Source: Azolla caroliniana
Taxonomy: Eukaryota > Plantae > Polypodiophyta
DNA: 64,000 nucleotides
Assembly (NCBI GenBank): GCA_043228905.1
Contig: JBHGNT010000022.1
Span: 3,720,001-3,784,000, forward strand
Direction: 5' to 3'
Below the pieces are notes generated by a model. It searched no databases. It was not told the DNA's origin and saw only the letters and a list, made by a program, of their open reading frames with translations. The first letter of the stretch is position 1, and every line of letters starts with the position of its first letter. This document shows, piece after piece, positions 1 through 58,562 of the stretch. The position numbers and the translations under genes are program-made.

Positions 1-3000
1 TTCGTACAAGACGAGGTCTCACACTCCATGATCCTCGAGCAACCCTTTATCACGGCTTCACGGATGGAGACGAAGGTGCTCGATAGCGGTGCGACTTTTG
101 CACGAATTTGGAGCCAAAACGGAGGGAAATCCGTCCAATTCCTAACGGTGCCGGAAATCATGAAAGGAACAAGAGAGAGCTCTTGTCCCAAACAAGAATG
201 GATTTTTAGAGTGGAATATTGCGGAGTGGGGAAGTGATAGTCCGAGAAGCCTTGATACCCCACACAAGAAGAAACCTCTCAGAGCAAAACAAGTACGAAT
301 CGGTCTAGATGGGGCATCCACGTACACGGTCGTAACCGGAGGAATGAAGAAAGAATACCGAAAAGTGGAGGATAAGTTACGGTCGGCATCAATAATAAAA
401 GAAGATGAAGAAATCGTGGGAATAGTTGAAGAAGTGTTCTATGGGACCACGTTACAACGGCTTGAAGAGCTCGCGGAAGATACAAGCCAGGGAAACCGGG
501 TAATTCCGGTGGAATCGGTCGAGATGTACGAGATCATTGCGAAAATGGGGCCGGATGCGCTCCGCAAAGAAGAAGCAATGGTAAGTATGAAATACAAGAC
601 CGTGGAGAAGAAGGTGAAACCAACCGCGGGACCGTTACCCGCCGATAGCGAACAAAAGAGGAAAGAAGTCTCGGGGGATCCGACACTTCGGAAGTCCATG
701 GATATTGGACATGCCTTCATGGATGACAACCGGAAGAAACTTCGGATCGGTGGTGGGTTCCTATTAAAGAATGAAGAAGAACGATTCCGTGGGATGCTAG
801 AGCGACATGGGAGAGCATTTGCATTTACATCGAAAGAAAGAGGATGCGCTGACCCGAAGATAGTGGAGTCGATGGTGATCTTCATGATTGACCATGTGTC
901 GTGGAACCTGAAGCCGATTCCGGTGCCACGGGCACATATTTTGAAAATCATCGACTTGCTCAAGGAGAAGGTGGCGATGGGGATTCTAGAGCCATCAAAT
1001 GCTCTGTACTCAAATCAATGGTTTACGGTTCCGAAGAAGAATGGGTCACTCTGATTTATCCAAGACTTGCAACCGGTGAACAAGGTCACGATCCGGAACT
1101 CCGGAGTCGGTCCGATAGTGGACGAATTTGCGGAAGCATTTGCCGGTCATGCGATATACTCTATCGGATACCTCTACTCGGGGTATGACCAATTCCAACT
1201 AGCCGTGGAGAGCCGAGACATCACTACCATGCAGACACCGATAGGATTAGTCCATATGTGTACGCTACCACAAGGCGCGACGAACTCGGTCGCACATATG
1301 ATGAATGCAATGAACAAGGTGCTTCGAGACTGCATTCCGGAGATAATGATGCCGTTCCTAGATGACATTCCGATGAAAGGATGCACGGTAGAAGAAAAAG
1401 ATGAAACTATGGATGATCGAGGATGCCGAAAGTTCGTAGTCGACCATATTCGTGATTGCGAGAAAGAGCTTCGAAAGTTAGAAGATGTGCACCTAACACT
1501 TTCCAGGGAGAAATCGGCATTCAGGCAAGAAGAAATATTGGTAGTTGGACATCTATGTGGGCCCTACGGCCAAAGACCGTCACCGACCAAGATCAATGCA
1601 GTTCAAGCTATGAAAGAAATATGTGAGTCACAATCCGAAGGTTTCTCGGAGCATGTGCATTCTACCACATAAGGATTCCACACTATGCACATATTGCAGA
1701 CCCACTCTATCACTTGTGGCGGAAGGGTAAGAAGTTTGAATGGAAACTGGAGCATACCAAAGCCGTGAAGAAGATCAAGAAATCACTACGAAGGGCAAAA
1801 GCACTAAAGAAGTCGAACTATGACCGACCGATCATAGTAACGGTTGACACAAGTCCAACCGGAATTAGATGGGTCATCAATCAAGTCGATCCGGATGGTT
1901 CGCGATATCCGATCCGATTCTGAGGAAAGGTTCTCAACGAAAGGCAACGCGGATATGTACAAGTCAAAAGAGAATTACGGGGAGTTGTGTCGGCAATCAA
2001 ATCGGATCGAGATTATTTGATGGGAGCCGAAGTACTGATCAAAACGGATTGTCTTCCGATACTCGGGATGATGCGGAGTTGCACGATACCGAATGTGGCT
2101 ATGCTAAGATGGATTGCATATGTTAAGTCGCTTAATCCGGAGGTACGGCACATCTCCAGAAAAGATAACACGGTAGCGGATATGCTATCAAGGGCACGGT
2201 TCGGAGATGACATAACCGAATCTGATAATGAAGAAGTTTCCAAAGACTACTTTGCTTCGGAGCACATATGTCGGGTGAACGTAATCCGAGAATTCCAGGA
2301 AGAAGAATACGAGGGAGAAAGCTTGTTGATCAGGAAAGTGCTACAAGAAATCGAGGAATCCTCGGATAATAAAGAGAAGAGAGCCGAGATCCGAAGTAAG
2401 AAGCGGCAAGTTCGAAAGTTCTTCTTGAAAAATGCATTAATATGGAGGGAGTCGAAAAGACTGGATGGCATACCACTTCGGGTAGTCGGGACGAAAGAGC
2501 AACGAAACCGGATAATGTTCGAATTTCACGAATCTGATTGGGCTGGACATCGAGGAACGTGGGAAACTTTTGTGAAAATCAAACAAAAATATTGGTGGAA
2601 GAACATGTACAAAGATATAGCAGAGTTCATGGAAAGCTACGAGAAGTGTCCAATCTACTCCGGAGTTCGACACCGAGATGAGTTACATCCGACATTCTCA
2701 CCGACAATCAACTTCAAATGGATGGTCGATATTGTAGCCATGCCTACTGGGATCGGACAAAAGAAGTACTTGGTGTTAGCTCGGGAAGATCTCACAAACC
2801 AAGTAGAAGGTCGAGCGCTACGAAGGAAAACGTGTTCTACAGTATGCCAATTTCTTTTGGAGGAGGTGTTTTGTAGGTACAGGTGTGTAGGACAAGTGAT
2901 TGCGGATCGGGGAGAACTTGACTCTGAAAAAGCTAAGGAATTCTTCACCAAACATGGAGTTTGGTTAACACTGATAACGACATACAATCCGGAAACCAAC

Positions 3001-4501
3001 GGGAAGATCGAACGAGGACATAGTCCGATCATCAAAGCACTTGCGAAGGCATGCGATGGAAGGGTGAAGTATTGGCCGCAGATGCTTCCGTATGCACTAT
3101 GGGCGGATTGGATGATGCATAGCTCCGTAACCGGTTACATGCCGGCAGAACTCATGACTGGGCAAGCACCGGTAATGCCAACGAAAACCGTGATCGCGAC
3201 ATGGACAATGCTACTATGGAAGGAAGAGATGAGCCGGGAAGAACTACTAGCGGTCCGGATACGACAACTAGATAGAAGACCGGAAGACATAGCGGAAGCA
3301 ATACGCCGACAACAAGAAGCGTGATTCCGCAATAAAAGCCGGTTCGACACAAAGCACCGACTACAACCGCGGAAGATTGAAGCAGGAGATTGGGTGATTG
3401 TCTACGACAGTAGTTTAGATCATCAACATACAACAATACGGAAGTTCGCGAAAAGGTGGTTCAGGCCATACGAGGTTCGGAAAGTTTTCAACAACGGAAC
3501 TTCCCGACTATGTGAGTTGGATGGAACGATGCTACGAGTGCCTATAGCCGGGAAACGGGTGAAGATTTTCAAGAAACGAACTAATGAAGAACCCTATGTG
3601 ATCCTAGACAAGACAGACAAGAAGGAGCAATTGGACGAAGATCGCGGTGATGCGGAAAGCGAAGAAAGTGGATTACAACTCATAGTCGACTTAAGGGGAG
3701 AATTGGAGGAAGCTTCGGATGAAGGTGAATAGCAAGCATCGGGGACTTCGACACATACCGAAGGATGTGCGGGTTCGGAGGGGGCGAGTGTCGTAGTGTG
3801 AATCACACACTACGTGAAATATGTAAAATACGTATAATAAATAAAATAAAATATTAAAATTATTTATTACGTGCATAGGGCAGGATTCAAACCTTGTACC
3901 TCCACATAGACAAACCCCAACCTTACCATTGTACTAAATTATCCTAAGTGTTTTAAATATAGATTTAATACGTATAAGACCTTTATTTACGCCTACCTTT
4001 ATTAAAAGGAAAGTCATGCATTTTTTAGAATGTGTGAATACTTTATTTATAAGAAAAATGTACACCAATAAAAAAAACAGACTTGTGCACATCTAGCGAG
4101 CATGAGCACTATATTTAGGAAATAAAAGCATAATGTAAAAAGGCAACTCATGCACATTTAATGTGCATGAACACTTTAGAAAAAGCATGAAGCTATGCTT
4201 AGCCTCTTCCATCCTTATATAAGGAGGAAAGAAAGATGTATGGGGGTTGTTGCTTATTTTACAAGGGTGGATTAATATAATATAATCGTGGGATTCACGA
4301 ATTCGCTAACTATTTTTTTCTCTCTTAACCTAAGTACTCACTAATACACTATACTCGTGGGATTCACGAGTTTTTCATATCTTTCTTTCTTACAACATAT
4401 TTGATATTCTTCATTGCCTTAGAATTTCCTTTTCTCCTAGTCCAAAACCTCAGTGGTTCCCGCCCGGCTCACGCAACGATCCGGAGCCGAAACGCACGAC
4501 A
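1..4501 (+). mobile_element. Ty3/Gypsy LTR retrotransposon G1 (5' part outside window), degenerate PR-RT-RH-INT plus 3' LTR
   Basis: ORFs 344-1054, 1067-1672 (LPQGATNS, FLDD), RNase H 1714-2200, integrase 1987-3324 (HRG..C, DRGE, YNPETNGKIER), 3394-3732; purine-rich PPT ending 3788; LTR 3789-4501 with TGTCGT...ACGACA ends; right flank ACGT inside Copia C1. Confidence 0.93.
3789..4501 (+). repeat. 3' LTR of G1 (713 bp)
   Basis: Follows PPT GGAGGGGGCGAG, inverted termini TGTCGT/ACGACA, TATA-like CTTATATAAGG at about 4214; Copia coding sequence resumes at 4502. Confidence 0.85.
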
Positions 4502-9736: not shown

Positions 9737-9933
9737 TATCGCGTTGTTACGCGCGTGTGTGGGGAACGAGGCGGGACCACCGTGGTCTTGGACCGAGAAA
9801 TAGCTGAGAAGGAGGAGAGCGGAAAGGCAACGGACACACTTGCACACGCACAGACATGGGAGCACACAGGGATCACAGTCCAACAACACAACAAACGAGA
9901 CGACTAGAAGTCTGAGTATATGAACACATATGC

Positions 9934-9965
<32 letters not shown>

Positions 9966-12900
9966 CGAGACGGTTACAACTAATAGGCCGGCAAGGCGAA
10001 CACCGACGGTTGTTCACTCACACACACAGAAGAGCGAGATAGAGACTTTGCCGGAAGCACACGAGCGTTCCACGGAGCAAAGTCAACCTCCCGAAAACCT
10101 GCGCAAAAATGGCTATGGAGAGTGGCAAAGGAGAAGGGCTCGGTCCTAGTTCGGCAACACTTCGTCCTCTCTATCGCGCGATCCCTTTCCCCATTCCTCT
10201 CCCTTTCTTTTATAGCCCAAGGAGGGAGGTCGTTATCATCCATTACATCACATTAATTCTCTGTCCTTTCGAACAGAGATACACCTCGATTCTCTCCCTA
10301 CTGAATGCGTGGTACCTAGGATTTCACCTCAGCCGACTTGGACCTACCTACTTACCATACAACGAAAAGTGTGCTCATGTGGAAGGGCCGGTTTACACAC
10401 GCTAAACTCGGTTTCCGCCGAGGGGCGGTTTTCTTCACGGCATCCGCCCCCACCTAACCACGCATCCACCGGTAGGTACCAAAATTGGGCTCTTGCTTTA
10501 CTCCTCGTCTTCCGGATCGTCATCCGCCTCGGACCGCCTGTCGTCACCGTCCATGCTTTCTAGATCCGGCTCGCACTCGTGTCGTTTCTTAAATGCTTTG
10601 AACCTCTTCCCCGCTACCGGTATTGCCATCCTCGTACCGTCGAGCTCCGCAAGATGGTAGGTCCTATTGTCGTTGGCACCTATCACCACGTAAGGCCCGA
10701 ACCACCTCCTTGCAAACTTTCGCGTTGCCCTGTGCTGGTTGTTGAGGTTGCTGTCATACACTAGGACCCAGTCGCCTTCCTCGATTTTCTTCGGTCGCAG
10801 TTGGTGACTCCGGTCAAACCGCCCTTTGTTCTTCAACCTTGCCAACCGAAGCTTCTCCACGGCTCTTTCCACGTCCTCCGGCCTTCGCTCAAGTTGTCGA
10901 ATCCGTGCCGCTAGCAGCTCCTCCCAGCTCATCTCATCTATCCAGTCGACCGTGGCCCATGAGGAGATGGTTCACTCTGTTGGCATGATCGGCCTCTATC
11001 CATACATAAGCTCTGCCGACATGAACCCGGTTACCAAACTGTGCGTAGTTCGGTCCGCCCACAAGGCATAAGGTAGCAGTTGCGGCCAGTTCCCGACTTG
11101 GCCTTCACATGCCCGTACTAGCGCTTTGACGATCGGCCCGTGTCTGCGCTCCACCTTCCCGTTAGCCTCCGGATTGTACGTTGTGGTGAGCGAGAGTTTG
11201 ACACCTAGTCGGTGAAACAACTCTTCAGCCTCTTGCACGTCCAACTCTCCACGGTCAGCCACGATCTTTCCTATGCTCCCGTACCCACATATCACGTCCT
11301 CGATTAGAAATCGGCACACAGCCACAGTCGTTTTTTTCTGCAGCGCTCGGCCTTCAACCTGGTTCATCAAATCCTCCCGAGCCAGCACCAGATACCGCAT
11401 CTGTCCTACCCCCATCGGCATCGTCACCAAATCCACCATCCATTTGAAGTGGACGGTCAGACGGTAGGTCGGGTAAAGCTCGTCCTAGTGTCGGACTATG
11501 GAATGCATCTGACAGCTTTCGCAAGTCGTCACGAACCGATGCACGTCCCGGTACAGTCCCGGCCACCAGTACTTCCCCTTTAGCTTCTCGAACGTGGCCC
11601 ACGTTCCGCGGTGTCCGGCCCAGGGACACTCGTGGTAGGCCTCCAACAACTCCTCTTGTTCCTCCTTCTTCGCCACCACTCGGAGCGAGATGTCGTCCCT
11701 CTTCTTCGGGTGCTTCCATATGTACCCGTCCCGAAGGAAGAATCGGTACGCTTTCTTCCGGATCCGGTTGGTCTCTTCCTTTGTCCACGCCGCATCCGGT
11801 GTCATTGTTTTCAGGAGCCCGCCGATCTGGAGCCACTCCCGGTCATACTTGCTCTCATCGAATTCGTTAAGCGCCGGAGTGCTCCCCTATCTGGTCGTCA
11901 CGTATGCCGCCTCGAAGAAATCTACGCCGACTTCCTCGTCCTTCGAAACCATGCCGTCCTTGTTTTCGAACCTCGCCCTTGAGAGCATTGTCTTTTCCGG
12001 AAATCTGTCGTATCTCCGGATTCAGGGACTTGATGTACGTTATCCATCTGAGCATTGCCAGGTCCGGCGTCGCGCATCCGGAAACCATGCCAAGAATCAG
12101 CAGGCAGTCCGTCTCGATTATTACCTCTGTCCCGATCAGGTAGTCTTTATCGGCCTTCACTACCGAAACGATACCCCAAAGTTCGCGTTTAACCTGGGCG
12201 TATCCTCGCTGTCGCTCACTGAGGACCTTCGCGCCGAACCGGATGGGGAACCTCGTGCCAACGTCATCCTCTTGGTTGATCAACCGCCCGATCCCGGTCA
12301 GCCTCGTGTCCACCGTCATGTAGATGGGGACACCCTTGCCGTAAGCCACTTTACGGAGAGTTGGTGCTACCATAAACGCCTCCTCTAGTCTCCAGACCGA
12401 CTCTGTGTGCTCCGTCCTCCACTCGAGCCTACACCCTTTCTTCAACAACCCGTAGAGCGGCTCCGCAACATGCGCGTAGTGCGGAATCCAGATGTGGTAG
12501 AACGCGCACGCCCCCAAGAATCTGCGGACCTCCGTAACAGACCCGCATTCGTCCTTCATCACGGAGATGGCTTCTACCTTTGCTGGAGACGGTTTCCTAC
12601 CGTAAGGCCCGCACAGGTGTCCGACCACCAAGATCTCTGACTGCCCGAATGCCGATTTTTCTCCGGAGAAGGTGAGTTGTGCGCTCTCGAGCCTCTGCAA
12701 CACCTTCTCGCAGTCGTTGATGTGGTTCACGACGAACCTCCGGCATCCGTCCGGCCCGACAGTCTCGTCCACATCTTCCACTGGACACCCCTTTATCAGG
12801 ATGTCATCCAAGAATGGCATGGTGATGTCCAGGATGCAGTCCCTCAACACTTTGTTCATTGCGTTCACCATATGCGCCACCGAGTTCGTGCCACCTTGTG

Positions 12901-15900
12901 GTAGGGTACACATCCGTACTAGGCCGAGAGGGGTTCGCATCGTCGTGATATCCCTGCTCTCCATGGCTAGCTGGAACTGGTCATACCCCGAGTATAAGTC
13001 ACCGACCAAATAGATCGACCTCCCAGCGCAGGCCTCCGCGAACTCGTCTATGGTCGGTCTGATTCTTGCATTACGGATGGTCACCCTGTTGACCGGTTTC
13101 AGGTCCTGAATGAAGCTCAGGGTGCCGTTCTTCTTCGGCACTGTAAACCACCGATTCGAATACGGGGCACTCGACGGTTCAAGGATGCCCATCTCCACCT
13201 TTTGCTTCAAAAGCTCCATCAACTTCGGGATGTGAGCTCTCGGCACCGGAATCGGTTTGAGATTCCACGGTACATGCGGTACTATGAAGATCACCATCGG
13301 TTCGACGATCATCGGGTCCACGCACCTGATCTCCTCTGGCGAGAACGCGAAGGCTTTCCCATGCCTTTCGAGCATTCTCCGAAACCTGTTCTCCTCCGCC
13401 GGTAGTAGAAAGCCACCCCCATCGACCTTGAGCTCCCGTAGCGTTATGTCGGTGAACCGGTGCCCTATGCCAGCCGGATTCTGTAAACTTGGGTCCGACG
13501 CGACCCCTTTTATCCGCTCCTTGCTGCCCTCCGGCAAGGGTGCCGCGACCGGCCTCACCTTCCGGTCCACAGTCTTCTACTTTGTACCCACGCGGGCCAT
13601 CCGATCCGACCCGATCCTTTCCCCGAAGTCCGCGATGACTTCGTACATTCCCATCGAACCTACCGGAACGTTCTGGTCTTCTCTAAGGTTTTCACCAATC
13701 ACCTTTCACAACTCGCCCAAGGTGTCGTCAAAAGAGACCGCCTCCACGGCGCCGCTGATCTCTTCGTCGGGGGAGAGGACTCTGCATCCCCTAAGCCACT
13801 CCTCCATTGTCAGAGAACCAAAATTTCCAACCTATGGTATAAGTCTTCTTCCCTACTATACATTTGTGGGGGTTTTCCGGGGTGTCCGGACTATCACGGC
13901 CCCACGCCTTGATACCCCTCTCTAAAAATCCCCTCGAGTTTCGCCACGGAGGGTCTCGTGATTATGCTCATGGTTTGGTTGCACCGTCAGGAACTGGACC
14001 GAGTGACGCCCATCCTAGCTCTTGACTCTTGCATAGGCCGAACCGTTGTCCAACACCTTGGTCTCCATCCGTGCCGCCGTGATGTACGGTTCTCCTAGTA
14101 TAACCGGATGTGAGGACGTCTCTTGCACAAAGAAGTGCTGGTCAATCTCGACATCGCCAATTTTCACCCGTACGTTCGGGCAGGCTCCATGTAGTTCTTC
14201 TGTGGTGCGCGTCACTGCCTGTATTTGCAACTGTGTTTGGTGTTGATCGGCCATTTCCCCTTTTTGTCAAAGTCCATGGACATCAAGTTGATTTCTGAAC
14301 CGTGGTCCACCAACGCCACCACCGGTTCCTGGACATCCCCAACCTTAATAGGGGTCTCCGTGGTCGCTCTGGCCCAGTGCGGCCTCGAATAGTGGCTCTC
14401 CGCCAGCTTGTCTTCTAACGCCATGTCCTCTATGTGCGTCGTTCGCACTTCAACCGGCTTCTCCGGCTCCGGCTCTGTCGAGAGCCTCTTCCTCTTCACC
14501 AAGTCTACGATGGAGTCGTGGAACTCCTTCTTGGCGATCCCGACCACTTCCCTCAACGACAGCTCCACTTTGTTGTCAAGGATACGTTCGTCCAGGACCT
14601 TTCGCAGGTCCGTGGTCCTTTCGATTTCCGTGCTCAACCGGTACCCGGCCTTCTTGGCTTTATCCGATGCGCCGGTCGCACTGGCCTCATTCTGCCTTTG
14701 ACCGAATCGAGTCTCGTACCGTTGCGAGGGCCCGGCCCCTCCGGTTTTACCTACTCGCTTGTCTTCCACCAGAGCCTCTTAGTTCTAGCATGCACCTTCA
14801 ACCAAGCCCGTCTTCTCTTCGACCGGGTCACTCCACCCGGTTACCTCCCGGACCCGTTTTTCCGCGCGGTTCGCTTCTTCTTTCCTTAGCCGTGTGCCGG
14901 CGAGGCCTTCCAGCATTAGCAGCCAGAATCCGGCTTCTTTCGTCTTCCGGGCCTCACCACCTCTGACCCGGATCCCAGTCGACGCCGAGTAGTGGACAGT
15001 CTCGGCGTGGCGAGACACCGCTTCTTCCATCAGTCGTTTCATACCCCCTCGTCCGACATTTCGGTCTAGGGCCCTTCGGGTCTCGCTAGCGTGCACCTGA
15101 CCATTCCATAGGTACACCACATTGGCTCTCATTGCCTCGGCGAAGTCTCCGCAGTCCTTCCAGACGTGGCCAACCGCGTTGCACCACGAACACTAGTTTC
15201 CAGCCAGAGGCCTTCGGTCACGGGCCTGTTCGCCGTTGTCCCTCCGTGCCTGTGCAATATGCAGGTCCTCTAGGGCTGCTCCTCCGGACGAACCTTTGAC
15301 CATGCCGGTCGAAGTTGATCCGGTCTTGAGCCAGTCTCGGGTCTCTTCCCTTCGCACTGGTGGGGTTGGCTCGAGTTTCCTTGCTGCTACAGAGCCTGCC
15401 CCTGTTGATCCTTTATCGACCCACTCTCACCGTTTGTCGAAACGGCCACTGACCCTCTTCACCATGGCCCAGTCAGCCGTCAGCCCGTCATCAGTCTCCA
15501 GCAGGAGACCCACTTGCTCCCGGTCTCTCGCATTCACCGACTTAACGAACACCAGGACGCGACTTGTGTCTAGTACGGTCTGGTCGAGCGCCGAAACACG
15601 CGCGAAGCGTTCTTCAAACTCCCGGAGGAGCAGTGACGCATTTCTCCCCTTTTCGGGGGTCTCTACCCATTTCATGAAGTCCCATTTCATGAAGTCCCAT
15701 TTCGAGTCTAGCTGAAGCGCGTCATCAAGCCCGTATTTTTCGAGGAGCTGACCTTCAAACTCGTCCTAGGTCCGGCTCTTAAAGCGTACCTCGAGCACCT
15801 CCGCATGGATGCCCGACATCGCCACCCGAGGGATTCCGGTTAGTCGCCTTTCTTCCGGAATGTCTCTCATTACCATCTAGGCCCGGTAGGCCTCCAAATA

Positions 15901-16268
15901 GCTCGTTGCATCCTTCCCACCGAACCGGCCTATCGTGCCGACGAACGATTCAATAGCCCTATCGAGGGCGCCTGCGACTTCGCGCGCACTCACTATCCAA
16001 TCCAGAGCCGAAGCCATGGCTTCCGCAAGATCCGATCCCCTCATCTTCGTATTCCTCTACCGCCTATTCACGTCGGGTTCACCAAATATATCGCGTTGTT
16101 ACACGCGTGCGTGGGGAACGAGGCGGGACCACCGGGGTCTTGGACCGAGAAATAGATGAGACACACTTGCACATGCACAGACACGGGAGCACACAGGGAT
16201 CACAGTCCAACAACATAGCAAACGAGACGACTAGAAGTCCGAGTATATGAACACGTATGCATATAAAT

Positions 16269-16300
<32 letters not shown>

Positions 16301-16778
16301 CGAGACAGTTACAACTAACAGGTCGGCAAGGTGAACACCGACGCTTGTTCATGCACACACACAGAAGAGCGAGATGGAGACTCTGCCGGAAGCACACGGG
16401 CGTTCCACGGAGCAGAGTCAGCCTCCCGAAAACCTGCGCAAAAATGGCTATGGAGAGTGGCAGAGGAGAAGGGCTCGGTCCCAATCCGGCAGCACTTCGT
16501 CCTCTCTAATGCGTGATCCCTTTCCCCATTCCTCTCCCTTTCTTTTATAGCCCAAGGAGGGAGGCCGTTATCATCCGTTACATCAGCATTAATTCTCTGT
16601 CCTTTCGGACAGAGATACACCTCGATTCTCTCCCTATTGAATGCGTGCTACCTAAGATTTCACCTCAGCCGACTTGTACCTACCTACTTACCATACAACG
16701 AAAAGTGTGCTCGCGTGTAAGGGCCAGTTTACACACGCTAAACTCGGTTTCCGCTGAGGGACGGTTTTCTTCACGACA
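9737..16778 (-). mobile_element. Ty3/Gypsy element G3 (tRNA-Trp family), full length but degenerate, nested in G2 LTR
   Basis: LTRs 9737-10442 and 16089-16778; TSD ACGT at 9733-9736 and 16779-16782; PBS ATTCACGTCGGGTTCACCA 16066-16084; gag, PR (VDHGSEIN), RT-RH ORF 11867-13570, INT 10498-11805. Confidence 0.95.
16066..16084 (-). promoter_or_regulatory. Primer binding site complementary to tRNA-Trp 3' end
   Basis: Plus strand ATTCACGTCGGGTTCACCA matches the recalled 3' end of plant cytosolic tRNA-Trp(CCA) plus CCA; repeated at 21353-21370 and 59702-59719. Confidence 0.85.
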
Positions 16779-22700: not shown

Positions 22701-25547
22701 GTTCCTCACCCTTCGAAGAAGAAAGCAATTGGCTACAAGTGGATTTACAAAGTGAAAACACAATGCCGACGGCTCCGTAAATCTCTTTAAAGCACGGCTC
22801 GTTCCGAAAGGATACGCACAAACACACGACGTTGACTACGAAGAGATCTTTGCCCTGGTGGCAAAGATGAAAACTGTGCGGACCGTAATTGCTATCGCAT
22901 AAGCAAAAGGGTGGCACCTCCACCAAATGGACATCAAGAACGCCTTTCATCAAGACGAATTGGAAAAGGAGGTGTCCATGATCCACCCACCCAGATTTGA
23001 ATCGCGCAGTCATCCGAACGTCATGTGCCGACTTAAGAAACCACTTTACAGCCTCAAACAAGCACAACGTGCATGGCACTCAAAGATCACGCAGTAGCTT
23101 CATCAGATCAGATTTCGAATGTCAAAATCTAATACTTCTCTGTACATCCTAAACGAGTCGGATAGTCTGATTCTGATCATCCTTTACGTGGATGATTTGG
23201 TCATTGGAGGAAAAGATCTAGCTGAGATTAACAAGGTCAAATCACTTCTCTCCGGCAGATTCAAAATGAAAGACCTGCACGAGCTACATTACTTCTTAGG
23301 CATTGAAGTAATTCGAACACCAGTTGGAATAATGATATCACAACAGCACTACGTTCTCAACTTACTCTACAATTTCAGAATGACGGAGTACAAACCTATG
23401 TCTACCCCTCTCGATCGTAATTTCAAGATCGATGCTAACTCTGGCATGGCCGAGAGTGAGCTGACTTAGTATCGTCAATTGATCGGTAGCTTAATTTATC
23501 TAACTGTCACGAGACCCGAAATCTTCATCTGGATTGCACTAAGAGGATACTTCGGTATGTCAACACGACGATGGACTACGACATCATGTATAAGTCGAAT
23601 ACGATCATTCGACTTGAAGGGTACACTAACGCAGACTGGGCAGGATACAAAGCAGATAGACGATCCACATCCAGATTCGTCTTCTCTCTTGGTAGCGGAG
23701 CTATCTCCTAGAGCAGTAAGAAGCAACCGACAGTCGCACTGTTGAGCACGGAGGCCGAATACAGTCGCATTGTTGAGCAACCATCGATTTACAACCAGGA
23801 AAAGAGCCAATCTACAATTTGTCACCAACCGAGCTAGAAATCCTTCAAGCCTATATAGAGGAGAATTTGACAAATGGTTTCATTCAACATTTGAAATCTC
23901 CAACCAGCACACCCATTTTCGTCGTCAAGAAAAAGGATGGATCACTTTGTCTCATCATAGATTATCGTGGCTTGAATAAGGTCACCATCAAGAATAGGTA
24001 TGCACTTCCCCTTATCTCAAGTCTTTTAGAACGGATCAATGGTCCAAGGTTCTTCACAAAGATTGACTTACGAGGAGCATATAACCTCGTACGGATCTGA
24101 CCAGGAGATGAATGGAAGACCGCATTTCGCACCAGATATGGGCACTCCGAGTATACGGTCATGCCATTTGACCTCACTAATGTGCCAACAGTCTTCCAGC
24201 ACATGGCAAATGATATATTCCGAGACCTATTGGATGTTTGTTTGATCATCTATTTGGATGATCTACTGGTTTATTTGAAGACCCAAGAAGAGCATGATTC
24301 TCATGTATTGTTAGTACTAAAACGACTTTGAGAACATGGTCTTTATGCAAAGCTAGAAAAATGTAGTTTCGAGTGCCACCAGGTAGAATTTCTGGGCTAT
24401 GTCATTTCCTCGGAAGGCATCTCCATGGATCCAACTAAGGTCAAAATGGTGGTAGAGTGGCAGACTCCGCATTAATTGCGAGATGTGCAATGCTTTTTAG
24501 GCTTTGCCAATTTCTACCGCAACTTTATACTAGATTACTCAAAGCTTGTTCTGCCTCTCACACAGCTTACCAGGAAGGGACAATCGTTCGTTTGGTCTGA
24601 AGAAGCAAACATGGCTTTTCAGAGTCTTAAGAAGGCATTTACATCAGCTCCTACTCTAGCTCATGTTGATTGGGAAAAACCATTCATCATCGAAGCAGAC
24701 ACGTTGGATTTCGCCTTGGGTAGCATTCTGTCACAACAAGGCGATGATGAAAAGCTACATCCTGTGGCTTTCCACTCACGCAAGTTTGACACCGCCGAAA
24801 TCAACGATGAAATTCATGATAAGGACCTATTATCAATAGTGGACTCTTTTACGCAATGGAGGCATTTTCTAGAGGGATCTTCTCATCATGTCACCGTATT
24901 CGGTAATCACAAAAACCTTGCCTACTTTTAGAATGCTTGTGGGTTAAATCAATGTCAAGCTCAATCGGCCCAATTCCTCACTCGTTTCAACTTCAAAATT
25001 ACATATCGTCCAAGGAAGCAACAAGGGAAGGAAGATGCATTATCACGGCGCTCGTATCTAGCACCGTGTTAAGAGTCTATTACTAATCAATAGACCAAAT
25101 CAAGTAAAAAGGAAGAAAATAGATTGGATAGAAGAACCCGTTCCACCCGACCACCCCCGAGCTATGATCTAGACATAGCCAACCTACCATCGACGTCCCA
25201 TACCGCCGGATATTAGGATGACTAATACCTTGGAAGAGATAAACACGATCGTCGAGACGAAAGCCTAGCCCGCACCACCGGTGTCTACGACAGCAGCCTT
25301 CCGACGTGATGATCTCTATGAGGGTAGCTAAGCCTCATATTTATACCTTTTCCTAGGCCCCTTGAATAGATGTGCCTTTCTAAAAGGCTCTCTATTCATT
25401 GGTTGTCTAAATCATGATAGTGCATGCACATATCATTCATTCTATCCAATCATTAGTCCCCTTTTTAATAATAGTGAACATACCCTTCACTAATGTAAAT
25501 ATTAGTGACCTACCCTCATCAACGTTATGTGTACATAACATACTCCC

Positions 25548-28500
25548 CTACTTCAAAAGATTGCACTCTTGCAATATAAAGTGAGGAAATTGTGCCTTAA
25601 GCGAATGCTCGCGTTCCCATGTGGCATCATCAATAGGTTTATCCATCCATTTGATCTTGAATAGCCGAATCTCTTTAGAACGTAAACGTTTAGTACGAGA
25701 ATCAAGAATTCGTTCAGGAACATGAGGTTTGTAAGAAAAATCCGCTAATGTTACAAGATCTTGGATTGTGATGGTGTTATCACCAGAGCCTAAAAATGGT
25801 TTTAGACGACTGACGTGAAAAACAGGATGAATACCAACGTTACGAGGTGAGGCAAGGTGATAAGCAGATGACCCAACTCGCTTAAGGATTTCAAATGGGC
25901 CACAATATCGTGGGGCTAACTTAGCGCACTTGCCCGTAGATAATGACGTAGAATCAGTCAGGACACGCAAAAAAACTTTTTGACCAATAGTAAATGCACG
26001 AGGACGTCTATCCTGATCAGCATAAAATCGAGCACGATCTTGAGCTGTCTTGACATTTTCTTTGGCAATATGCAACATTTGGTTCATGTCTTGCAAAAAA
26101 TTGCGTGTACTGTCTAATGTATCACGATGAATCGTGACATCAACTGGGGCACGTGGCTGAAAACCATACATCAACATAAAAGGACTATATCCAGTGGATG
26201 TATGTTTAGAGCTATTATAGGCAAATTCTAAGATAGGAAGGTATTGCTCCCACTTAGAAGGGGTTTTTGCTACATAAGCTCGAAGCATGTCCTCAATAAT
26301 TTGATTAACTCGTTCAGTTTGTCCATCAGACTGAGGATGATCTGCGGAACTCATGCTCAACGTAGTTTCTAGTTTCTTAAAGACCTGAGTCCAAAAGTCA
26401 CTAGTAAACTTGGAATCTCGATCACTAACAATATCCATCGGTAATCCATAAAAACAAAATAACTCATCAACAAATTGATAAGCCAACTGTTGAGCGGTTA
26501 CCGTGGTTTTTGTAGGAATAAATCTAGCTAATTTTGTTAGCCTGTCAACGACAACCCATATGGCATCATGACCCCTCTGTGTACGAGGTAAACTAACAAT
26601 AAAATCCATCGAGATACTTTCCCATTTATTGTTGGGAATATCTAAGGGATGTAAAAGACCAGCAGCTTTAAGTCGTTCCGACTTATTAATCTGACATTGT
26701 AAGCATTGAGTTACGTATTTATGCACGTCAGAGCGCATCTTAGGCCAGAAAAAGTACACGAGATGAGAACGAGTGTGCGTTGTATTCCAGGATGACCAGC
26801 AGATGGTGCATCATGACATTCATGAAAAATTTTCTGTTTAACATTTGGTAAATCTGGAACACAGACCTTTCCACTACGGTAGAGCAAACCGTTTGTAATG
26901 TGAAAGGTCGCCTTCGAGGGTAGGGTGCTAGTATCGGCATCTAAACCAGATTCGGCTTTCGTCCAGTATTTTGAGAAATAACTGTCATCAAGGTATTTCC
27001 CTCGAAGGTGATCTAAAAGATCAGATTTTATTTCCGTGAAGCTAAGCATGTTAACTTCTTTAATGCGACTAAGAGCATCAGCAACGGTGTTCATAGAACC
27101 CTTGCGATATCGTATGGAAAAATCAAAATCTTGCATAAGGTCAGCCCAACGGCCTTTACGACCAACGAGATCGGGCTGGTCACAAAAATACTTTAATGAT
27201 TGATGGTCTGTTGTAACCACAAATTTATTTCCATAGAGATAGTGCCTCCATGTTTTAAGTGCGTGTATCACCGCAAACAACTCTTTCTCTTGAACCGAAT
27301 ACCGAGATTAAGCAACATCAAGCTTCTTACTTTCAAAAGCAATAGGGTGACCACCTTGATAAAGAACGGCACCAATAGCATAATCACTAGCATCGGTTTC
27401 AATTGAGAAAGGCTTAGAAGGGTCTGGTAATAGAAGAGTGGGAGCCTGACATACATGCTCCTTGAGTGTCTCAAATGATTTGTCAAGTTGTTCATTCCAT
27501 GAAATTGGTTTGACAGACTTACGTGGATGACCTTTTAAAAGGTCAGTTAATGGCGTAGTCAATTTGGAATAGTTACGAATTGATTTTCGTAAAAATCCAA
27601 CAAACCCTAAGAATGATCTAAGTTCACGAATATTACGAGGAATGGGCCAAAGTTTAACCTTTTCAATACGAGAAGGTTCAATTTCAACGCCATTTTCTAT
27701 AATTAAATGACCTAGGTACACAATAGATTTTTGGAAGAAGTCACATTTTGAATGTTTTGCATAGAAAGAGTTGTCACGCAACTTTCGCAAAACAAATCGA
27801 ACATGTTGAACATGATCTTGCAAGGTACGGCTATATATCAAAATATCATCCAAGAAGACGACAACAAAATCACCGAGTTGATCTCGGAAAACATCATTCA
27901 TCGCTTGTTGGAATGTGGCTGGAGCATTAGTCAACCCAAACGGCATGACTAAAAACTCATAATGGCCATAGCGCGTACGAAAAGCGGTTTTAGGAATATC
28001 ATCCTCGGCGATGCGAATCTGATGATAACCAGTTCGTAAGTCAATTTTCGTAAAATATCGAGCCCCGTGCAAACGATCAATCAAATCATCGGCACGAGGT
28101 AATGGATATGCATTCTTAATTGTCATTTTATTCAAACGGCGATAATTGATACACATTCGCCACGAACCTTCCTTCTTCTTAACTAATAGAACTGGCGCAC
28201 CCCAAGGTGATTTACTATACCTAATGTGGCCCATACTCAAGTATTCCTTAAGTTGTTTAGCGATCTCATCCTCTTCTAATCGACTAAGTCGGTAAGGTGG
28301 AATGCTCACAGGAGCAGCCCCAGGGATGAGTTCAATTTGATGGTCCACATTACGTTTAGGTGGTAAAGTAAGCGGTAATTCAGTAGGAAACACATCTTGA
28401 AAATCCTCTAAAATAGAGTCGAGTAATCGTTGCTCAAAATGTGGTAATTGTGTGGCGTCAATATTAAAATAATAAAATTGAACCGCAGGATCAATTACAC

Positions 28501-29950
28501 ACGAATAAATTAATGAACTAGAATACTCACTTAAAGATTTAGAAGACACAAGTGAATGAGAAGGAAGTTTGGAACATTGAATAAAATGTTTACAATTATT
28601 AAGTTCAAATGTGATTGAGTGATTAACCCAATCAATGGACAAAGAAGGGTTTTTATTAAAAAACCAAGGATATCCTAAAATGCCATCTGCGGATTGTAAT
28701 TTCATAACATGAAAGTCAAGCTTCTCCAAATAAGTATCTATTTGAATTGGCAGTTGACAAACAATGCCACTGATGTATTGAACGTTTCCATTTGCCATGT
28801 GAACTTGATAGATATGATCACTTGCGTTTATGTGGAGCTCCATTTGCTGCACAAAGTGATCATTAAGAAAATTGTGAGAACTACCGGAATCAAACAAGAA
28901 ATGTGCTTGTGTTCCATTGATATATCCGACTGCTCGGAGTAAATCATTAGGTCCAAGTAAATGTGAAGGAAAAGTGCATTCACATAAACTTAAGTGATTG
29001 GTATGAACTTCAACAATATCAAAAGACTCACCTGTGTGACTCGTAGATTTGTCTTGAGGAGGGGTGTTCATTGACTTCCTCTCAAGACGACGACAGGTAT
29101 CCTTTGTGTGGCCCCGCTTCTTGCAATATGCACAGAAGAGGTTCGGTTTCTTTGAGTCGCGGTCAAGAGTGTCACTGGATTGCTTACGTTTCCCAATGAA
29201 CTTGACATTCGGAGTTTTGGCGAACTTAGGTTTATTGTGGTCTTTCTTGGAAGTCCTATGGTATCGCAGCACAATGTTGACGGCTTCCTCGAAAGTTGTG
29301 GGGTCCTTGTCATGGACAATCCAATGATAATCCCCATTGGGAATACCATTCAAAAAACAAGCGACAAACCATTTCTCACCCGTAAGTCCCGATTTTTGGA
29401 TCTGGGTCCGAGCGTGATGCACATAATCCTCGAGAGAGGTAAATGGCTTACTAGACAATGTGAGCAAGTGTTGCGCTTGTTTGGTTTGAGAAGGTGGCTG
29501 CAAGAATTGTTTCTTAAAAACATCAACGAAACCTTCCCAAGTTGTGGGTAAGTTTTTTGCGGTCCTTAGGCCACGCCACCAAGCAGCAGCTCGGCCACCT
29601 AACTCACGACCGACATAACCAATTTTTACTGCATCGGGCTTGGGATGAAGCTCAAAGTGAGACTCCCAACGACCAAGCCAAGTGCTAATGGCCTCCTCGG
29701 TTCTTTCTTTCTTATCTCCCTTGAAAGGCGTGACTACGAAGGAAGGTTCACCTTCTTTCTTGGACTCAATAGTTAATTCTTGGAATTTCTTTTCCAATGC
29801 CATATTGGCCTGTCTCATTTCGGCCAATTGATTCAAGGTAGTAGTGAGCAATTGCTCAATAGTGATCTCAGCTTGTGTGCGAGATGCGGATTGGGGTTGA
29901 GAGGTCTCATTTGGAGAGATCGTTCCAACTGCGTTCAAAACTTGTTCCAT
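25548..29950 (-). pseudogene. G4 gag-pol (Gag with CCHC knuckle, PR, RT, RH, INT, chromodomain); one in-frame stop and one frameshift
   Basis: ORFs 27308-29950 and 26711-27280 share a frame; 25548-26759 is shifted; motifs [26 protein letters not shown]-terminal PERILD..KW..DATWE. Confidence 0.93.
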
Positions 29951-30977
29951 GATGCACGCTGTGGGTATGCAATAAAATAAGGAGGTTCAGAAAATACACA
30001 AGCAAAATGAATGCTTGAAATTTTGATTGAAAGAACTTTATCCAAGAAAGTATCTCATGTCTTTACCCCTCTAGACATATGAGATGTGATTCGAGATCCG
30101 ATAACTATGGTAACACTATGGTGTTTTAAAAACCATGGGGGAAAACATAGCTAAGATGTATTTCTCGGATCTCTATCTTGAGTAATCATGGCGGCTCCCC
30201 GAGGCTCAACCATGGTTCTTACATCAATGAAATTTCCTAGATAGCCTTATATTAATGCCAACCCATCATGTATTATATGGTCGAGAAAGTGTATTACGTG
30301 AAAAAAACAAGTGCACTCACAAGTAATATTCTAGTCTTGCGAGCAATAAGCAAACGTGATGATAAAATGATAAAATAAGGCACTACTCATAAGAGTTAAG
30401 TAGTGATGAAAACAAGGGTAAAAAAAAAAGAACCCATGTGTTACCTACGAAAAAAACAATGTCACAAATAAATGGGAAGTGCAAGGTATGCACATATACA
30501 TCCCAATATGATTGTTATAACTTGCACAATTGTGACATAAGCCACAAATTGATACAAGTGATGACGGTGTTGTGCGCAAAGATGTAATACTCAAATCCAT
30601 GAGTAAAACATCAATAAGGGAACTCATATGGTTTTACTCGTTTTCTAAGGCTTGATGATAAGAGTTAAACCTAGATGACCCGTTGAAAAAATAATAATAA
30701 TAAATAATAAATAAATAAAAATCGTTCAACAAGCCACTCCATACGAAAAAATAGTCTACACGTAAAGGTTACATTAAAAATAAACGATGTAAATACTTTA
30801 CACATGAAAAGGAAGTGGAAAAAGGATAGTTAATTGTGGGCGGGTAAATAATAATTACTAGAAAATCATATAAGTGAAACAATACTTATGAAATCAAAAT
30901 TTAATTAGAATAATCAACAATTAGGTGTATGGAATCAAACATGCCCTAAGATACGAAACCCTAGGGTAGTTGACATG

Positions 30978-31296
30978 CACCTCCTCAAGACCACCACATA
31001 TCCCTAGAATCGGCCAAGTAATGGCTAATTAAAGAGGAAAGTGGCATAGGTAAGTGACATATACCTCGTCAAGGCCACATCATCCCTTAGAATCGGCCAA
31101 TTGATGGCTTATTAAAAAGGAAAGTGGCATATGTAAGCTACATATACCTTGTCAAGGCCACAACATCCCATAGAATCGGCCAATTGATGGCTTAATAGAG
31201 AGTAGAGTGGCATATGTAGGCAACATACACCTCGTCAAGGCCACATCATCCCTTAGAATCGGCCAAGTGATGGCTCAATAGAGAGGAAGAGTGGTA
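30978..31296. repeat. About 4 x 83-bp tandem repeat in G4 5' UTR, followed by a ~120-bp duplication (about 31305-31490)
   Basis: Unit ACCTCGTCAAGGCCACATCATCCCTTAGAATCGGCCAATTGATGGCT... starts near 30978, 31062, 31145, 31228. Confidence 0.9.
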
Positions 31297-32488
31297 TACT
31301 CAACATCATATGCAAAACGGCCATGAGATAAGCGTGTGCGATTAGAGCAAACACGCTTGACCCAATGCACAAGAATAATTATTATCGTAAGAGTTCAAGA
31401 GAGGAGAGAGTGGGATATATATCGCAATATGCAAAAGGCCATGAGTTGAGCGTGTGCGATTAGTGCAAACACCCTTGGCCCGATGCATAATAATAAGTAA
31501 AATCGTAGCGTAGTAGGAGGTAGAAAGAAAGAGAATAAAACGTAATACCAATTTGATTCGACCATAAAGAACGCATAATAGAAAAAGAGAAGAGATCAAA
31601 AAAGAAGAATACCGGGTTTAGAGTGTTGTTTTGATCCTGAGAAGAGCATGACGAGCCTTGTTAGATCCCCCTCGCTCACACGCAAAAAACATCAAAACAA
31701 CAAAAAAATTGTTAGTAAAAGCTCTGATACCACTGTTAAGAGTCTATTACTAATCAATAGACCAAATCAAGTAAAAAGGAAGAAAATAGATTGGATAGAA
31801 GAACCCGTTCCACCCGACCACCCCCGAGCTATGATCTAGACATAGCCAACCTACCACCGACGTCCCATACCGCCGGATATTAGGATGACTAATACCTTGG
31901 AAGAGATAAACACGATCGTCGAGACGAAAGCCTAGCCCGCACCACCGGTGTCTACGACAGCAGCCTTCCGACGTGATGATCTCTATGAGGGTAGCTAAGC
32001 CTCATATTTATACCTTTTCCTAGGCCCCTTGAATAGATGTGCCTTTCTAAAAGGCTCTCTATTCATTGGTTGTCTAAATCATGATAGTGCATGCACATAT
32101 CATTCATTCTATCCAATCATTAGTCCCCTTTTTAATAATAGTGAACATACCCTTCACTAATGTAAATATTAGTGACCTACCCTCACCAACGTTATGTGTA
32201 CATAACACACCGCGTCCTGACGAGCCAACTTTTGATAACCAAAAGCAAGTAATCCTAGGACAAGTACCACTGCAAGCAACGCAGGTCTTCGGTATGCCCT
32301 TGGATCCCCACGTTATCGATACCATACGTGAGGAATTGAAGACAGATGCTTTTGCCCAAGCCATTCTAGCACAAATTGATCCCTCTCTAGCATCTTGTTC
32401 ACAGTCGCAACAACCAGGTACGGACTATCGACAATTCAAATGTCATGATGGATTACTATTCTTTAAGAAACTCTTGTATGTTCCTAAT

Positions 32489-39327: not shown

Positions 39328-41293
39328 ATGGATGTCTCCATAGCTGCACTTTTCATGGAGGAAAGGCTTCTTTCGTCACCCATCACATGGGAAACAAATC
39401 ATGAGGTAAGTCCCACCCTATACTTTGGTTTCATTCCATCTACATTTGACGAATGGAATGAAGGATCGATTGATAAGATTTTGTTAAGGAACAACATGAA
39501 CATGCTTGCGCATGTCTTATTAACAAGTTGAGTAAATCTATGCCATCTTTGTCTAGTCATGCTTTATAAATTTGTATTTGATCCAAGTTAATGGGTATCA
39601 GTAAAAAATGTTATGTTACATGCTCTTATTATATAGTGTTTGCATTTGCATATTAGAATATTTAGTATGTAGATTAATATAGTACATGTCTGACATGAAA
39701 TCTTTGTAGTTTGTCGGCCATCACATGGATCAATTGAGCAATATTTAATTAAAAGAGAACAAATGTCCTAAAACACATGATTACACTAGGCCTTAAACAA
39801 AATAAACTTGTTTAGATCATCATCTCATGCTCTTATATTAATGGCTTTGCTTGTGGCTTGCTTAGAACATGAATGAGCTTCGGCATAGGATCACGTGTAC
39901 AATATCGGAGCTGGAGGCAGCTAAAAAAGAACATAAAATGCAAGAGCACATCACAAGAGCCAGGCTACAATGCTTGCAGGGCCTCTTGGATACAACCAAG
40001 ACGGAGCGAGACGAAGCCCTTCGACTTTTCACGAGCCTTAAGGAGTCACTCATGCGAGCATCGAATTCATTAGGGGCCAACGGATCTATCACTCAATCGG
40101 CCTTGCTAATCCGCAACGGTAATGATCATGCAAAGCACCGCGATTCATTGTCTTCTCTAAACAATTTATCGACGAATCGAGGCGCCCTAGAGAAGCACCC
40201 CGATTCGGATATTTTGGACATGGATATATTCACTTCCAAAGACAATGAGAATTGGAGAGACTTCCCCGAAGAATTCGACATTCTCAATGAAGATGGAGGG
40301 GAGGGTGGGTCTTTTGTGGAAGATGAGAGCTTGAACATGAAGACGAAGTCTTCTTTCAGCGACCCACCGAGCTCTGGTTCGGCATCAAGCTGGGAAACAA
40401 ATTTGCAAAGACAATCATCCGTCATTTCGACAGCAGCATCACCACAAGTGAAGAATCAGTATTCTGATGGAAGTGAGAAAGCAGCAGCCGCAGCAGCACC
40501 AGCTTTCATGGCATATCTCCCTGGTATGTGTGCTAATTCTTCAACTCGATCCCCATTAATGTTAATGCCGGAGGAGAAGGAAAAAGCATCAATGGCATCA
40601 TCATACATGCCCACATATTCTCATTGCTCGTTCCTCGACATGCCCGCATTGGTCATTTCATCTTTGTCTGAATTATTAGACAATCCGCCGACACCCCATA
40701 CAAGATTCGAAAAGAAGAAAGCAGAGCTTTGGTTCGCACCATTTTCACCGGAGACCCCTAATCTTAGTATGTTGATGATGCCAGGATCTGCAAACATGGA
40801 GAAAAAATATGACATACCTCCTCCCATGGTGGTGTCTCCATCAAACTTATCCAAGGTCTCAACATCCACATCCACCACCAAGTTACCTCTGAAAAGGTCT
40901 CTTTTGGAGTCTCTTGAAGAAAAACATAGTCAAGAGGAATCATTATTGGTGAACCCATTGCCAAAGAAAGGGAAGCTCTTGGAAGCAGTAGCTAGGGCAG
41001 GGCCTCTACTGCAACAACTTATTGTCATAGGTCCATTACCAGATTGGAAGAATCCACCACCAGTGATGGACATACCAATGATGCCTATGTCATTGAGCAA
41101 CATTTCTCTGTCTTCCCCTACATGTACCATCAGCCCAACCCCTTCCCCATTTGTAGATACATGCCAATCTTTACACATGCATGGTCTCCCAACATATCTT
41201 ACAGATTTGCATACCATGCAGCAATCAAACATACACATGAGGTCTAGCCTAGAAAAAAAGCTTATAGCACCTGCACTCCCACTAAAACCATGA
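39328..41293 (+). CDS. DUF1635-family plant protein, two exons (39328-39405, 39866-41293), about 501 aa
   Basis: GAG|GTAAGT donor, CTTAG|AAC acceptor, phase 0; N-terminal coiled coil MNELRHRI..ELE..ERDEA and C-terminal LPKKGKLLEAVARAGPLLQQLIVIGPLPDWKNPPP signature; uninterrupted frame. Confidence 0.88.
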
Positions 41294-57416: not shown

Positions 57417-58562
57417 TTAAGGAATTTGGCCACCATCATCCATCAAGACAAAGTGGCCAAAGTGCTCTTAGCACAAATGAAAAATGAGGGAGCTCAAGGT
57501 GTTTATATAGCCAGGACCTTAACTTTCCTATCTATGTGGGATAGTTCTAATTTCCCTATCTAATCAAACTTTATTTTCTCATAACTTGGTATGTATTTCT
57601 CCATTTTGTATATAGTAAAATACATTTTGAAGCTCTTGAGTATATCCTTCTTTCTATAGTAAGCTACTAATCTAATCTATAATAATTATTTCATTATTTT
57701 TTTACATAGTGTGTGAAGATTCACACGACATTCACCCCCACCAAACCTGCACATCCACCGGTATGTGCCAATTGTGATGAGGGTCCATTTTTGTTTACTT
57801 TAATTTTTCGTTGATGTACCCAAATCGCCATTGCCATTCGATCCACCATATTCTTCGCTCAATTTGTGTATTTCCATGACCGATTTTCATGGCTCTCTTT
57901 GGTCCTCTAGAGCATAATGCTTCACTCCTTATGCATGTGCCACCTTCATCTCGGCCATCTCCTTGGTCATCTAATTTTCTCTTATCATTCTTTCTTGTTC
58001 CATGCATGTCTTTCAAAGGCCTTATCGAAGTACTATTGTTGAGTACTCTTAGTGGTCCATTCTTTAATGACATGCTCTCTTGTAGGTCCTTAAGTGACCA
58101 CATTGTATGCTTCCCACTTTGTCCACTTTTGTGGTATACTCTTGTGTTAGAATTGACTATGACTTCTTTGCTAGTATTATCCTTGTTAGATTTTGTGATC
58201 ACATCTTTCGTATCCGATTGGCCCACTTGGCCCCCATCTTTACTTTTTGAGGTTTGCTTGGTCTCTTTGTCGCACACATTTGCTTTTGTCTTCATGCTTT
58301 GCTTGACCTCTTTGTCGCACACATGGACTTTTGTCATTTTGCTTTGCTTTACTTCCTTGTTGCACACATTGGCTTTAACCCTTGCTTCCTCGCCGCCATC
58401 GTCCTTCTCTTGGGTCTTACATCGATTAATGCCCAAGTCTTTCAAACGAGTGTGGAGGAATTTTGTAGTTTGGCATTGACTTTGTCGTGCTACTCTTTGC
58501 CACTTCCACCTTATGGTTGTTCGTGTTGACGTTGATCTTTGTTTCTTTGCCGCCACCGTCCT

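Follow-up and report, generated by a model that had tools for sequence, protein, structure and literature searches.

A family of plant Ty3/gypsy LTR retrotransposons resembling the Phygy lineage probably produces its pol proteins by a programmed -1 ribosomal frameshift placed after the protease, a reading to which we give a probability of about 0.88 from sequence comparison across the family and which excludes E1, the dead copy in which the signal was noticed. The window (the whole 64,000-nt stretch of DNA analysed) is a nest of LTR retrotransposons, in which E1 is a decayed Phygy-like Ty3/gypsy element at 1-4501 (+), with its 5' LTR and gag outside the window. Its features are:

1..150 (+), C-terminal part of the retropepsin (protease), frame 1, with a translation that aligns with element G3 and loci L043 and L048
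151..157 (+), single-base frame break, found in E1 only, separating the protease from the slippery site, seen in the frames and as an indel against other genomic copies
200..206 (+), slippery heptamer G_GAU_UUU (GGATTTT) at the end of ORF1 (Gag-PR), from sequence and family counts
207..212 (+), 6-nt spacer holding the ORF1 stop TAG (207-209), from sequence and aligned junctions
213..222 (+), 5' strand of predicted pseudoknot stem 1, GGAATATTGC, mismatched at 216 in E1
234..243 (+), 3' strand of predicted stem 1, GTGATAGTCC, from sequence and covariation
226..231 (+), 5' strand of predicted stem 2, GTGGGG, from sequence
258..263 (+), 3' strand of predicted stem 2, CCCCAC, in the register common to L043, L048 and L058
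200..3730 (+), pol (linker, RT, RNase H, integrase), beginning in the -1 frame and broken
3790..4501 (+), 3' LTR (TGTCG...CGACA), with a polypurine tract before it and ACGT after it

The original prediction had placed the heptamer, the TAG and both stems at these positions, and direct inspection of the sequence bears out every coordinate. Stem 1 of E1 forms 9 of 10 pairs, two of them G-U, with an A216.G240 mismatch that is private to this copy; at 216, 97-99% of the read depth in three DNA runs differs from E1. We place the frame break at ~151-157 because frame 1 holds the protease tail (1 to ~150) and frame 3 holds GAT TTT TAG. In L043 and L048, which are ~90% identical to E1, the protease runs uninterrupted in one frame to the DF-stop, and stem 1 is a perfect 11 bp. 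The -1 frame, predicted to be open from 200 into the RT-leading ORF, is indeed open from 164 to 1051 but stops at 1052, inside RT; further stops at 1921 and 3322 and a frame change near 1640-1670 break the remainder of pol. The ATG at 344, proposed as the start of that ORF, must be given up, with no conserved start in the family and the first pol ATG scattered from codon 3 to codon 111.

A second copy of the signal lies in G3, which is nested at an ACGT site in the 3' LTR of a further family member, G2:

9737..16778 (-), G3, full-length decayed family member with an ACGT target-site duplication, inside the G2 3' LTR
16068..16084 (-), G3 primer binding site (PBS), a motif also found in relatives
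13925..14370 (-), G3 protease, running in frame into ...GDF-stop, with its D-H-G motif at 14307 (14307-14299)
13866..13931 (-), G3 frameshift signal, with the heptamer at 13931-13925 and TAG at 13924-13922
13918-13909/13897-13888 and 13905-13900/13871-13866 (-), G3 stems, from sequence
13800..13810 (-), deletion of 47 nt found in G3 only, lying between slip site and RT, from alignment to L008, L011 and L020
9116..22047 (-), G2, same family as E1 and G3, with an internal deletion of ~1 kb near 20135

The LTRs of G3 match at 637 of 681 aligned bases, and its protease is broken by one frame change and one stop. The claim that G3 repeats the layout of E1 holds, heptamer, TAG and stems all being present. 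One end pair of its stems is unpaired and there is a G.G mismatch, and RT shares the protease frame instead of lying in -1 because of the 47-nt deletion near 13807, as judged against three close relatives. The deletion in G2 removes the protease and the whole signal and puts gag in frame with pol, with a stop at the junction. E1 and G3 are the only two of 84 heptamer-class sites in the window with such a pseudoknot when one mismatch is allowed, compared with 24 of 5558 sampled positions, both counts resting on criteria fixed after the two window copies had been seen. Each fails a perfect-stem search because of one stem-1 mismatch. ViennaRNA, which cannot model pseudoknots, gave no significant fold (z -1.6 to +0.45) and did not show the proposed stems in E1, and no Rfam family matched at E values up to 10. 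E1 and G3 are dead relics of a Gag-PR/-1-pol design, and neither copy alone proves the mechanism.

Three other parts of the window can be described briefly. An element at 57795-59740 (-) shares the PBS motif (59719); its ORFs are gag-like and charge-rich, with no Pfam hits, it has no pol, and it is possibly a non-autonomous partner of the Phygy-like family. A young chromovirus at 25067-32210 (-) has LTRs that are 99.4% identical, gag-PR-RT in a single ORF and a chromodomain. Inside the retrotransposon nest, at 39866-41293 (+), lies a host-like ORF with DUF1635.

The case for frameshifting comes from 80 related loci, mostly from one set of metagenome assemblies, which were retrieved with two protease peptide patterns only, so that their selection was blind to the junction. 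Of the 78 loci with a readable ORF1 stop, 70 carried a slippery heptamer (GGATTTT in 63, GGATTTC in 3, GGTTTTT in 2, GGGTTTT in 1 and GGTTTTC in 1), with TAA (29), TAG (29) or TGA (12) as the ORF1 stop. In the eight loci with no heptamer, most of them short contigs, the downstream ORF never exceeded 118 codons. Half of the readable loci (39/78) had a downstream pol ORF of at least 500 codons, representing 22 clusters at 90% identity and 18 at 80%, and all 39 had the heptamer at the end of Gag-PR. Relative to ORF1, pol lay in frame -1 in 37 of these and in the +1/-2 frame in 2; frame 0 was never used. Intact copies forming one continuous ORF or missing the heptamer had been named as grounds for abandoning the idea, and the numbers of such loci were zero of 39 on either count. 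From the heptamer onward the pol frame was free of stops in all 39, compared with 4-22 and 3-19 stops in the other two frames. The overlap between ORF1 and pol shrinks to 10 nt in six long-pol loci, since a pol-frame stop lies 3 nt before the heptamer.

Codon choice at the slip site is also constrained. Across 26 representatives, heptamer-bearing by selection, GAT was used in 26 and TTT in 25 (background, 56% and 38%), and the base before these codons was G in all 26, across 11 different codons. The G_GA start is a known departure from the X_XX slippery rule (PMC5009743). Of 34 aligned junctions, 32 had a 6-nt spacer, inside the 5-9 nt at which the stimulatory structure of a -1 signal is expected. 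A perfect two-stem pseudoknot at -23 kcal/mol or better was found at 42 of 52 unique junctions (81%), compared with 9 of 1029 pol positions and 10 of 1040 shuffles (~1%).

For the stems we aligned 34 junctions chosen from 54 unique ones, favouring intact elements, with one gap in the stem region. The covariation check that had been suggested for both stems supports stem 1: eight of 11 pairs were changed on both sides, the covariation score was 0.339 versus 0.218, with 0 of 500 shuffles reaching it, and pairing fell from 83% to 25-43% when the strands were slid, these counts ignoring relatedness among junctions. For stem 2 the outcome is mixed. Pairing of 4-8 bp is possible in 34 of 34 junctions, above shuffles, and compensated pairs occur (GAGGGT/ACCCTC, GCAGGGA/TCCTTGC, GGCGGG/CCCGCC and GCGGGA/TCTCGC), most clearly in L059, L067, L077 and L080; however, specificity for an element's own tail is modest (own tails score 16.2, tails of other members 14.5 and shuffles 12.1), and the register varies. 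Its G and C runs overlap pol codons, and stem 2 is not countable on fixed columns because loop 3 varies. We regard support for stem 2 of the predicted H-type pseudoknot as moderate. In L077:1569-1637, L079:1258-1326 and L080:935-1003, with heptamers G_GGU_UUU, G_GUU_UUC and G_GAU_UUU, respectively, the ORF1 stop lies up to 15 nt further downstream, reaching into stem 1, and the spacer is still 6 nt.

Protein databases revealed a similar division. Among Gag-PR homologues ending near the last motif, 30 of 42 end in DF, and 82 of 83 pol proteins from ORF calls have no gag and protease. The single other one, P0179, a distant relative with 57% RT identity, carries gag, protease and RT in a single frame; its junction, known from protein only, keeps D-F and G-F residues. 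More distant relatives, some with canonical DSG/DTG motifs among them, end within 45 residues past the protease in 54 of 76 cases and extend more than 100 residues past it in 14 of 76, several of the latter resembling gene models. Proteins matching the family named from Physcomitrium patens end in KDF-GEVPL, an ending that, from protein alone, appears to parallel L077 and L080, where the stop sits inside stem 1. Riccia sorocarpa gene models (named rows, P0094-P0189) bridge protease and pol at differing points. Two RNA runs yielded 5 and 0 reads, none over the junction; among short contigs related to L071, four span the T run and stem 1 ungapped, and no contig links the protease to the junction.

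The domain before the signal was modelled with a retropepsin fold (family model, pLDDT 91). Foldseek returned the Ddi1, XMRV, EIAV and HIV proteases as best matches (E 1e-6 to Ddi1 and XMRV), Pfam Asp_protease_2 was found in 19 of 23 sequences with scores below the curated cut-off, and a PDB sequence search gave no match. Identity to the homologues named from P. patens is 66-70% in the protease; the named homologues are from P. patens and Riccia, which suggests a host of bryophyte type. On the modelled fold, the signal lies after the protease. Its catalytic motif is D-H-G in the family (D-Q-G in L079) and not D-S/T-G, DSG or DTG occurring only in distant relatives; protease activity is therefore suggested by conservation and position. 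One may speculate that a weakened enzyme is favoured if protease is made one-for-one with Gag.

Together, the -1 frame of 37 of 39 long-pol loci, the covariation of stem 1 and the retropepsin fold favour, for the family though not for the dead E1 copy, the proposal that Gag-PR is followed by pol through -1 frameshifting. ORF1 would encode Gag and protease and end at G_GAU_UUU-stop, where most ribosomes would terminate, giving Gag-PR of about 700-770 residues as the probable major product. The predicted pseudoknot, 6 nt downstream, would stall a minority of ribosomes while GAU occupies the P site and UUU the A site, provided that it forms in vivo; these would slip back one base to GGA UUU and add ~1150 residues of RT-RNaseH-integrase, making Gag-PR-Pol the presumed minor product. 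The A-site tRNA-Phe could re-pair on UUU, and the P-site tRNA would probably re-pair poorly. We infer the slip step from established -1 signals (PMC5009743, PMC12789967).

Other routes to pol fit the same junction less well. Splicing might remove it and join pol to Gag-PR, as in Ogre, which is split at the same place and spliced (PMC6317226), and Riccia gene models do link protease to pol over the junction region. Those models are predictions whose junctions differ, however, and their introns over the frameshift are likely invented; no GT within 150 nt upstream is conserved in at least 20 of 26 elements, the pol frame is open from the heptamer in every long-pol locus, and splicing leaves heptamer, spacer and stems unexplained, all of which makes it highly improbable. 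Independent initiation of pol, either internally or by termination-reinitiation, with the structure serving that purpose or packaging, is also very unlikely, although viruses do reinitiate at overlapping start and stop codons (PMC3542737), E1 has its ATG at 344, and L059 and L071 have an in-frame ATG a few codons before the slip site. The first pol ATG is scattered in position, yet the frame is open back to the heptamer, and synonymous codon choice there is fixed; both points argue against it.

RNA polymerase could instead slip on the five-T run, so that part of the transcripts gain a base, or the stop could be read through, as in gammaretroviruses, in which a pseudoknot after UAG drives readthrough (PMC3542737). 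We give this as little credence as splicing: the T run is down to three in the GGATTTC of three loci, two of which have long -1 pol ORFs; frame 0 never holds pol, and TAA, TAG and TGA are all used as the stop. Chance, or decay of a single ORF, could be entertained from the two decayed window copies and the single-ORF P0179, but no long-pol locus has a single ORF and the pseudoknot occurs in 81% of junctions versus ~1% of controls. The pseudoknot controls, stem 1 covariation and pol frame counts largely refute this explanation, the least credible of all. Programmed -1 frameshifting is the reading that we retain for the family.

One branch may have changed the direction of the shift. L059:2836-2904 and L071:2498-2566, from families 71-77% identical, have the slip site AG_GUU_UUU, with ORF1 ending CAG GTT TTT (G/T)AC TAG, and are the only two among the 34 aligned junctions with a 5-nt spacer. 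In both, the -1 frame is soon closed (within 1 and 6 codons), and a pol of 1101-1154 codons is open only in the -2/+1 frame. This arrangement is matched by independent protein calls (P0031, P0033, P0084 and P0087), and the end of ORF1 and the start of pol in L059 find matches in protein clusters with 35 and 54 members. In a quick-method tree that left out 8 of 15 added protein rows and has a long outgroup branch, the two are a sister clade (support 100) nested among -1 elements. We consider it an even bet that this clade moved from -1 to -2 frameshifting driven by the pseudoknot, which we prefer to a +1 shift or to reinitiation at the nearby in-frame ATG. The arterivirus -2 site is the same sequence, G_GUU_UUU, and both systems need -2 (possibly +1 in L059 and L071); arteriviruses, which have no pseudoknot there, rely on nsp1-beta and PCBP at a C-rich motif 10 nt away (PMC6675879). 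In L059 and L071 the C-rich CCCANCUCC motif was not found 10 nt downstream, and the predicted pseudoknot starts 5 nt downstream. In an HIV cassette, a shorter spacer raises -2 relative to -1 frameshifting (PMC5009743). If this is true, a retrotransposon would here carry a natural -2 signal made of RNA only, and its -1 sister elements would serve as an internal control for the idea of spacer length setting shift direction.

By description, the family resembles the Phygy lineage of REXdb. Target-site duplications agree with the 4-bp NCGN of Phygy (ACGT on both sides of G3, GCGT/ACGT for G2 and ACGT at the 3' flank of E1), and the PBS motif of G3, shared by 35 of 80 loci, in which it lies some 2.0-2.3 kb upstream of the ORF1 stop, is presumably of the tRNA-Trp type, as in Phygy. 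Pfam searches of L048 pol and P0084 found no chromodomain and no additional RNase H, and the order PR-RT-RH-INT is that of Phygy. Lengths are 7.0 kb for G3, with deletions, and ~7.5 kb for L004, the REXdb range for Phygy being 7.7-10.0 kb. From target duplication, PBS motif and domain content we therefore describe the family as Phygy-like. The suggested comparison with REXdb points to a Phygy-like lineage but gives no ORF layout, which is listed for Phygy as not determined (PMC6317226 supplement 5). The coding organisation proposed here would fill that gap in plant LTR classification and would account for introns invented by gene predictors in Phygy-like elements.

The premise that most LTR elements recode between gag and PR does not carry over to plants, in which most LTR lineages use one ORF (PMC6317226). 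REXdb gives overlapping GAG/PROT frames for Tcn1 and Selgy (PMC6317226 supplement 5), and a review reports, from a 2003 survey, only +1 arrangements in plant elements (PMC5009743); the Phygy-like signal is a conserved plant retrotransposon candidate for -1 frameshifting stimulated by a pseudoknot. In the openly accessible papers searched, we found no description of it, and the available parts of PMC12786077, PMC7466625, PMC11963269, PMC5911963, PMC8703376 and PMC3542737 do not describe it. Ogre and Retand, of the plant Tat lineage, are split into GAG-PROT plus RT-RH-INT at the same position (PMC6317226 supplement 5), Ogre with a spliced intron and Retand with a single in-frame stop, both with an extra RNase H (PMC6317226). 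Unlike these, the Phygy-like family has overlapping frames, a heptamer and a predicted pseudoknot. What is new is the proposed mechanism and not the position of the split, Ogre and Retand already being split after the protease. Drosophila Ulysses may also be split after the protease.

G_GAU_UUU is the heptamer of RCNMV. The original prediction had attributed it to dianthoviruses generally; in the text available to us, a review gives it for pea enation mosaic virus, whose RNA2 has the same heptamer and a nearby stop, and gives only 'G_GA' for dianthoviruses (PMC5009743). At umbravirus and dianthovirus sites a stem-loop pairs with an element ~4 kb away (PMC5009743), whereas the structure predicted here is a local H-type pseudoknot. 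The family offers a 65-nt cassette in ~20 diverged natural forms, the -2/+1 branch included, on which models of spacer length and shift direction become testable.

Among retroviruses, MMTV and HTLV have a further shift between gag and pro, whereas here Gag and protease form one ORF of about 700-770 codons. Rous sarcoma virus, an alpharetrovirus, uses a heptamer that differs from G_GAU_UUU. As in the Phygy-like family, its protease is the C-terminal domain of Gag (PMC11769450), and its pol is reached, as proposed here, by a -1 frameshift at a pseudoknotted signal (PMC12002268). The Rous sarcoma virus element is doubly pseudoknotted, whereas the one predicted here, in a Ty3/gypsy retrotransposon of plants, is a compact knot of two stems. 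The arrangement implies that protease would be made one-for-one with Gag, the strategy of Rous sarcoma virus, independently reached.
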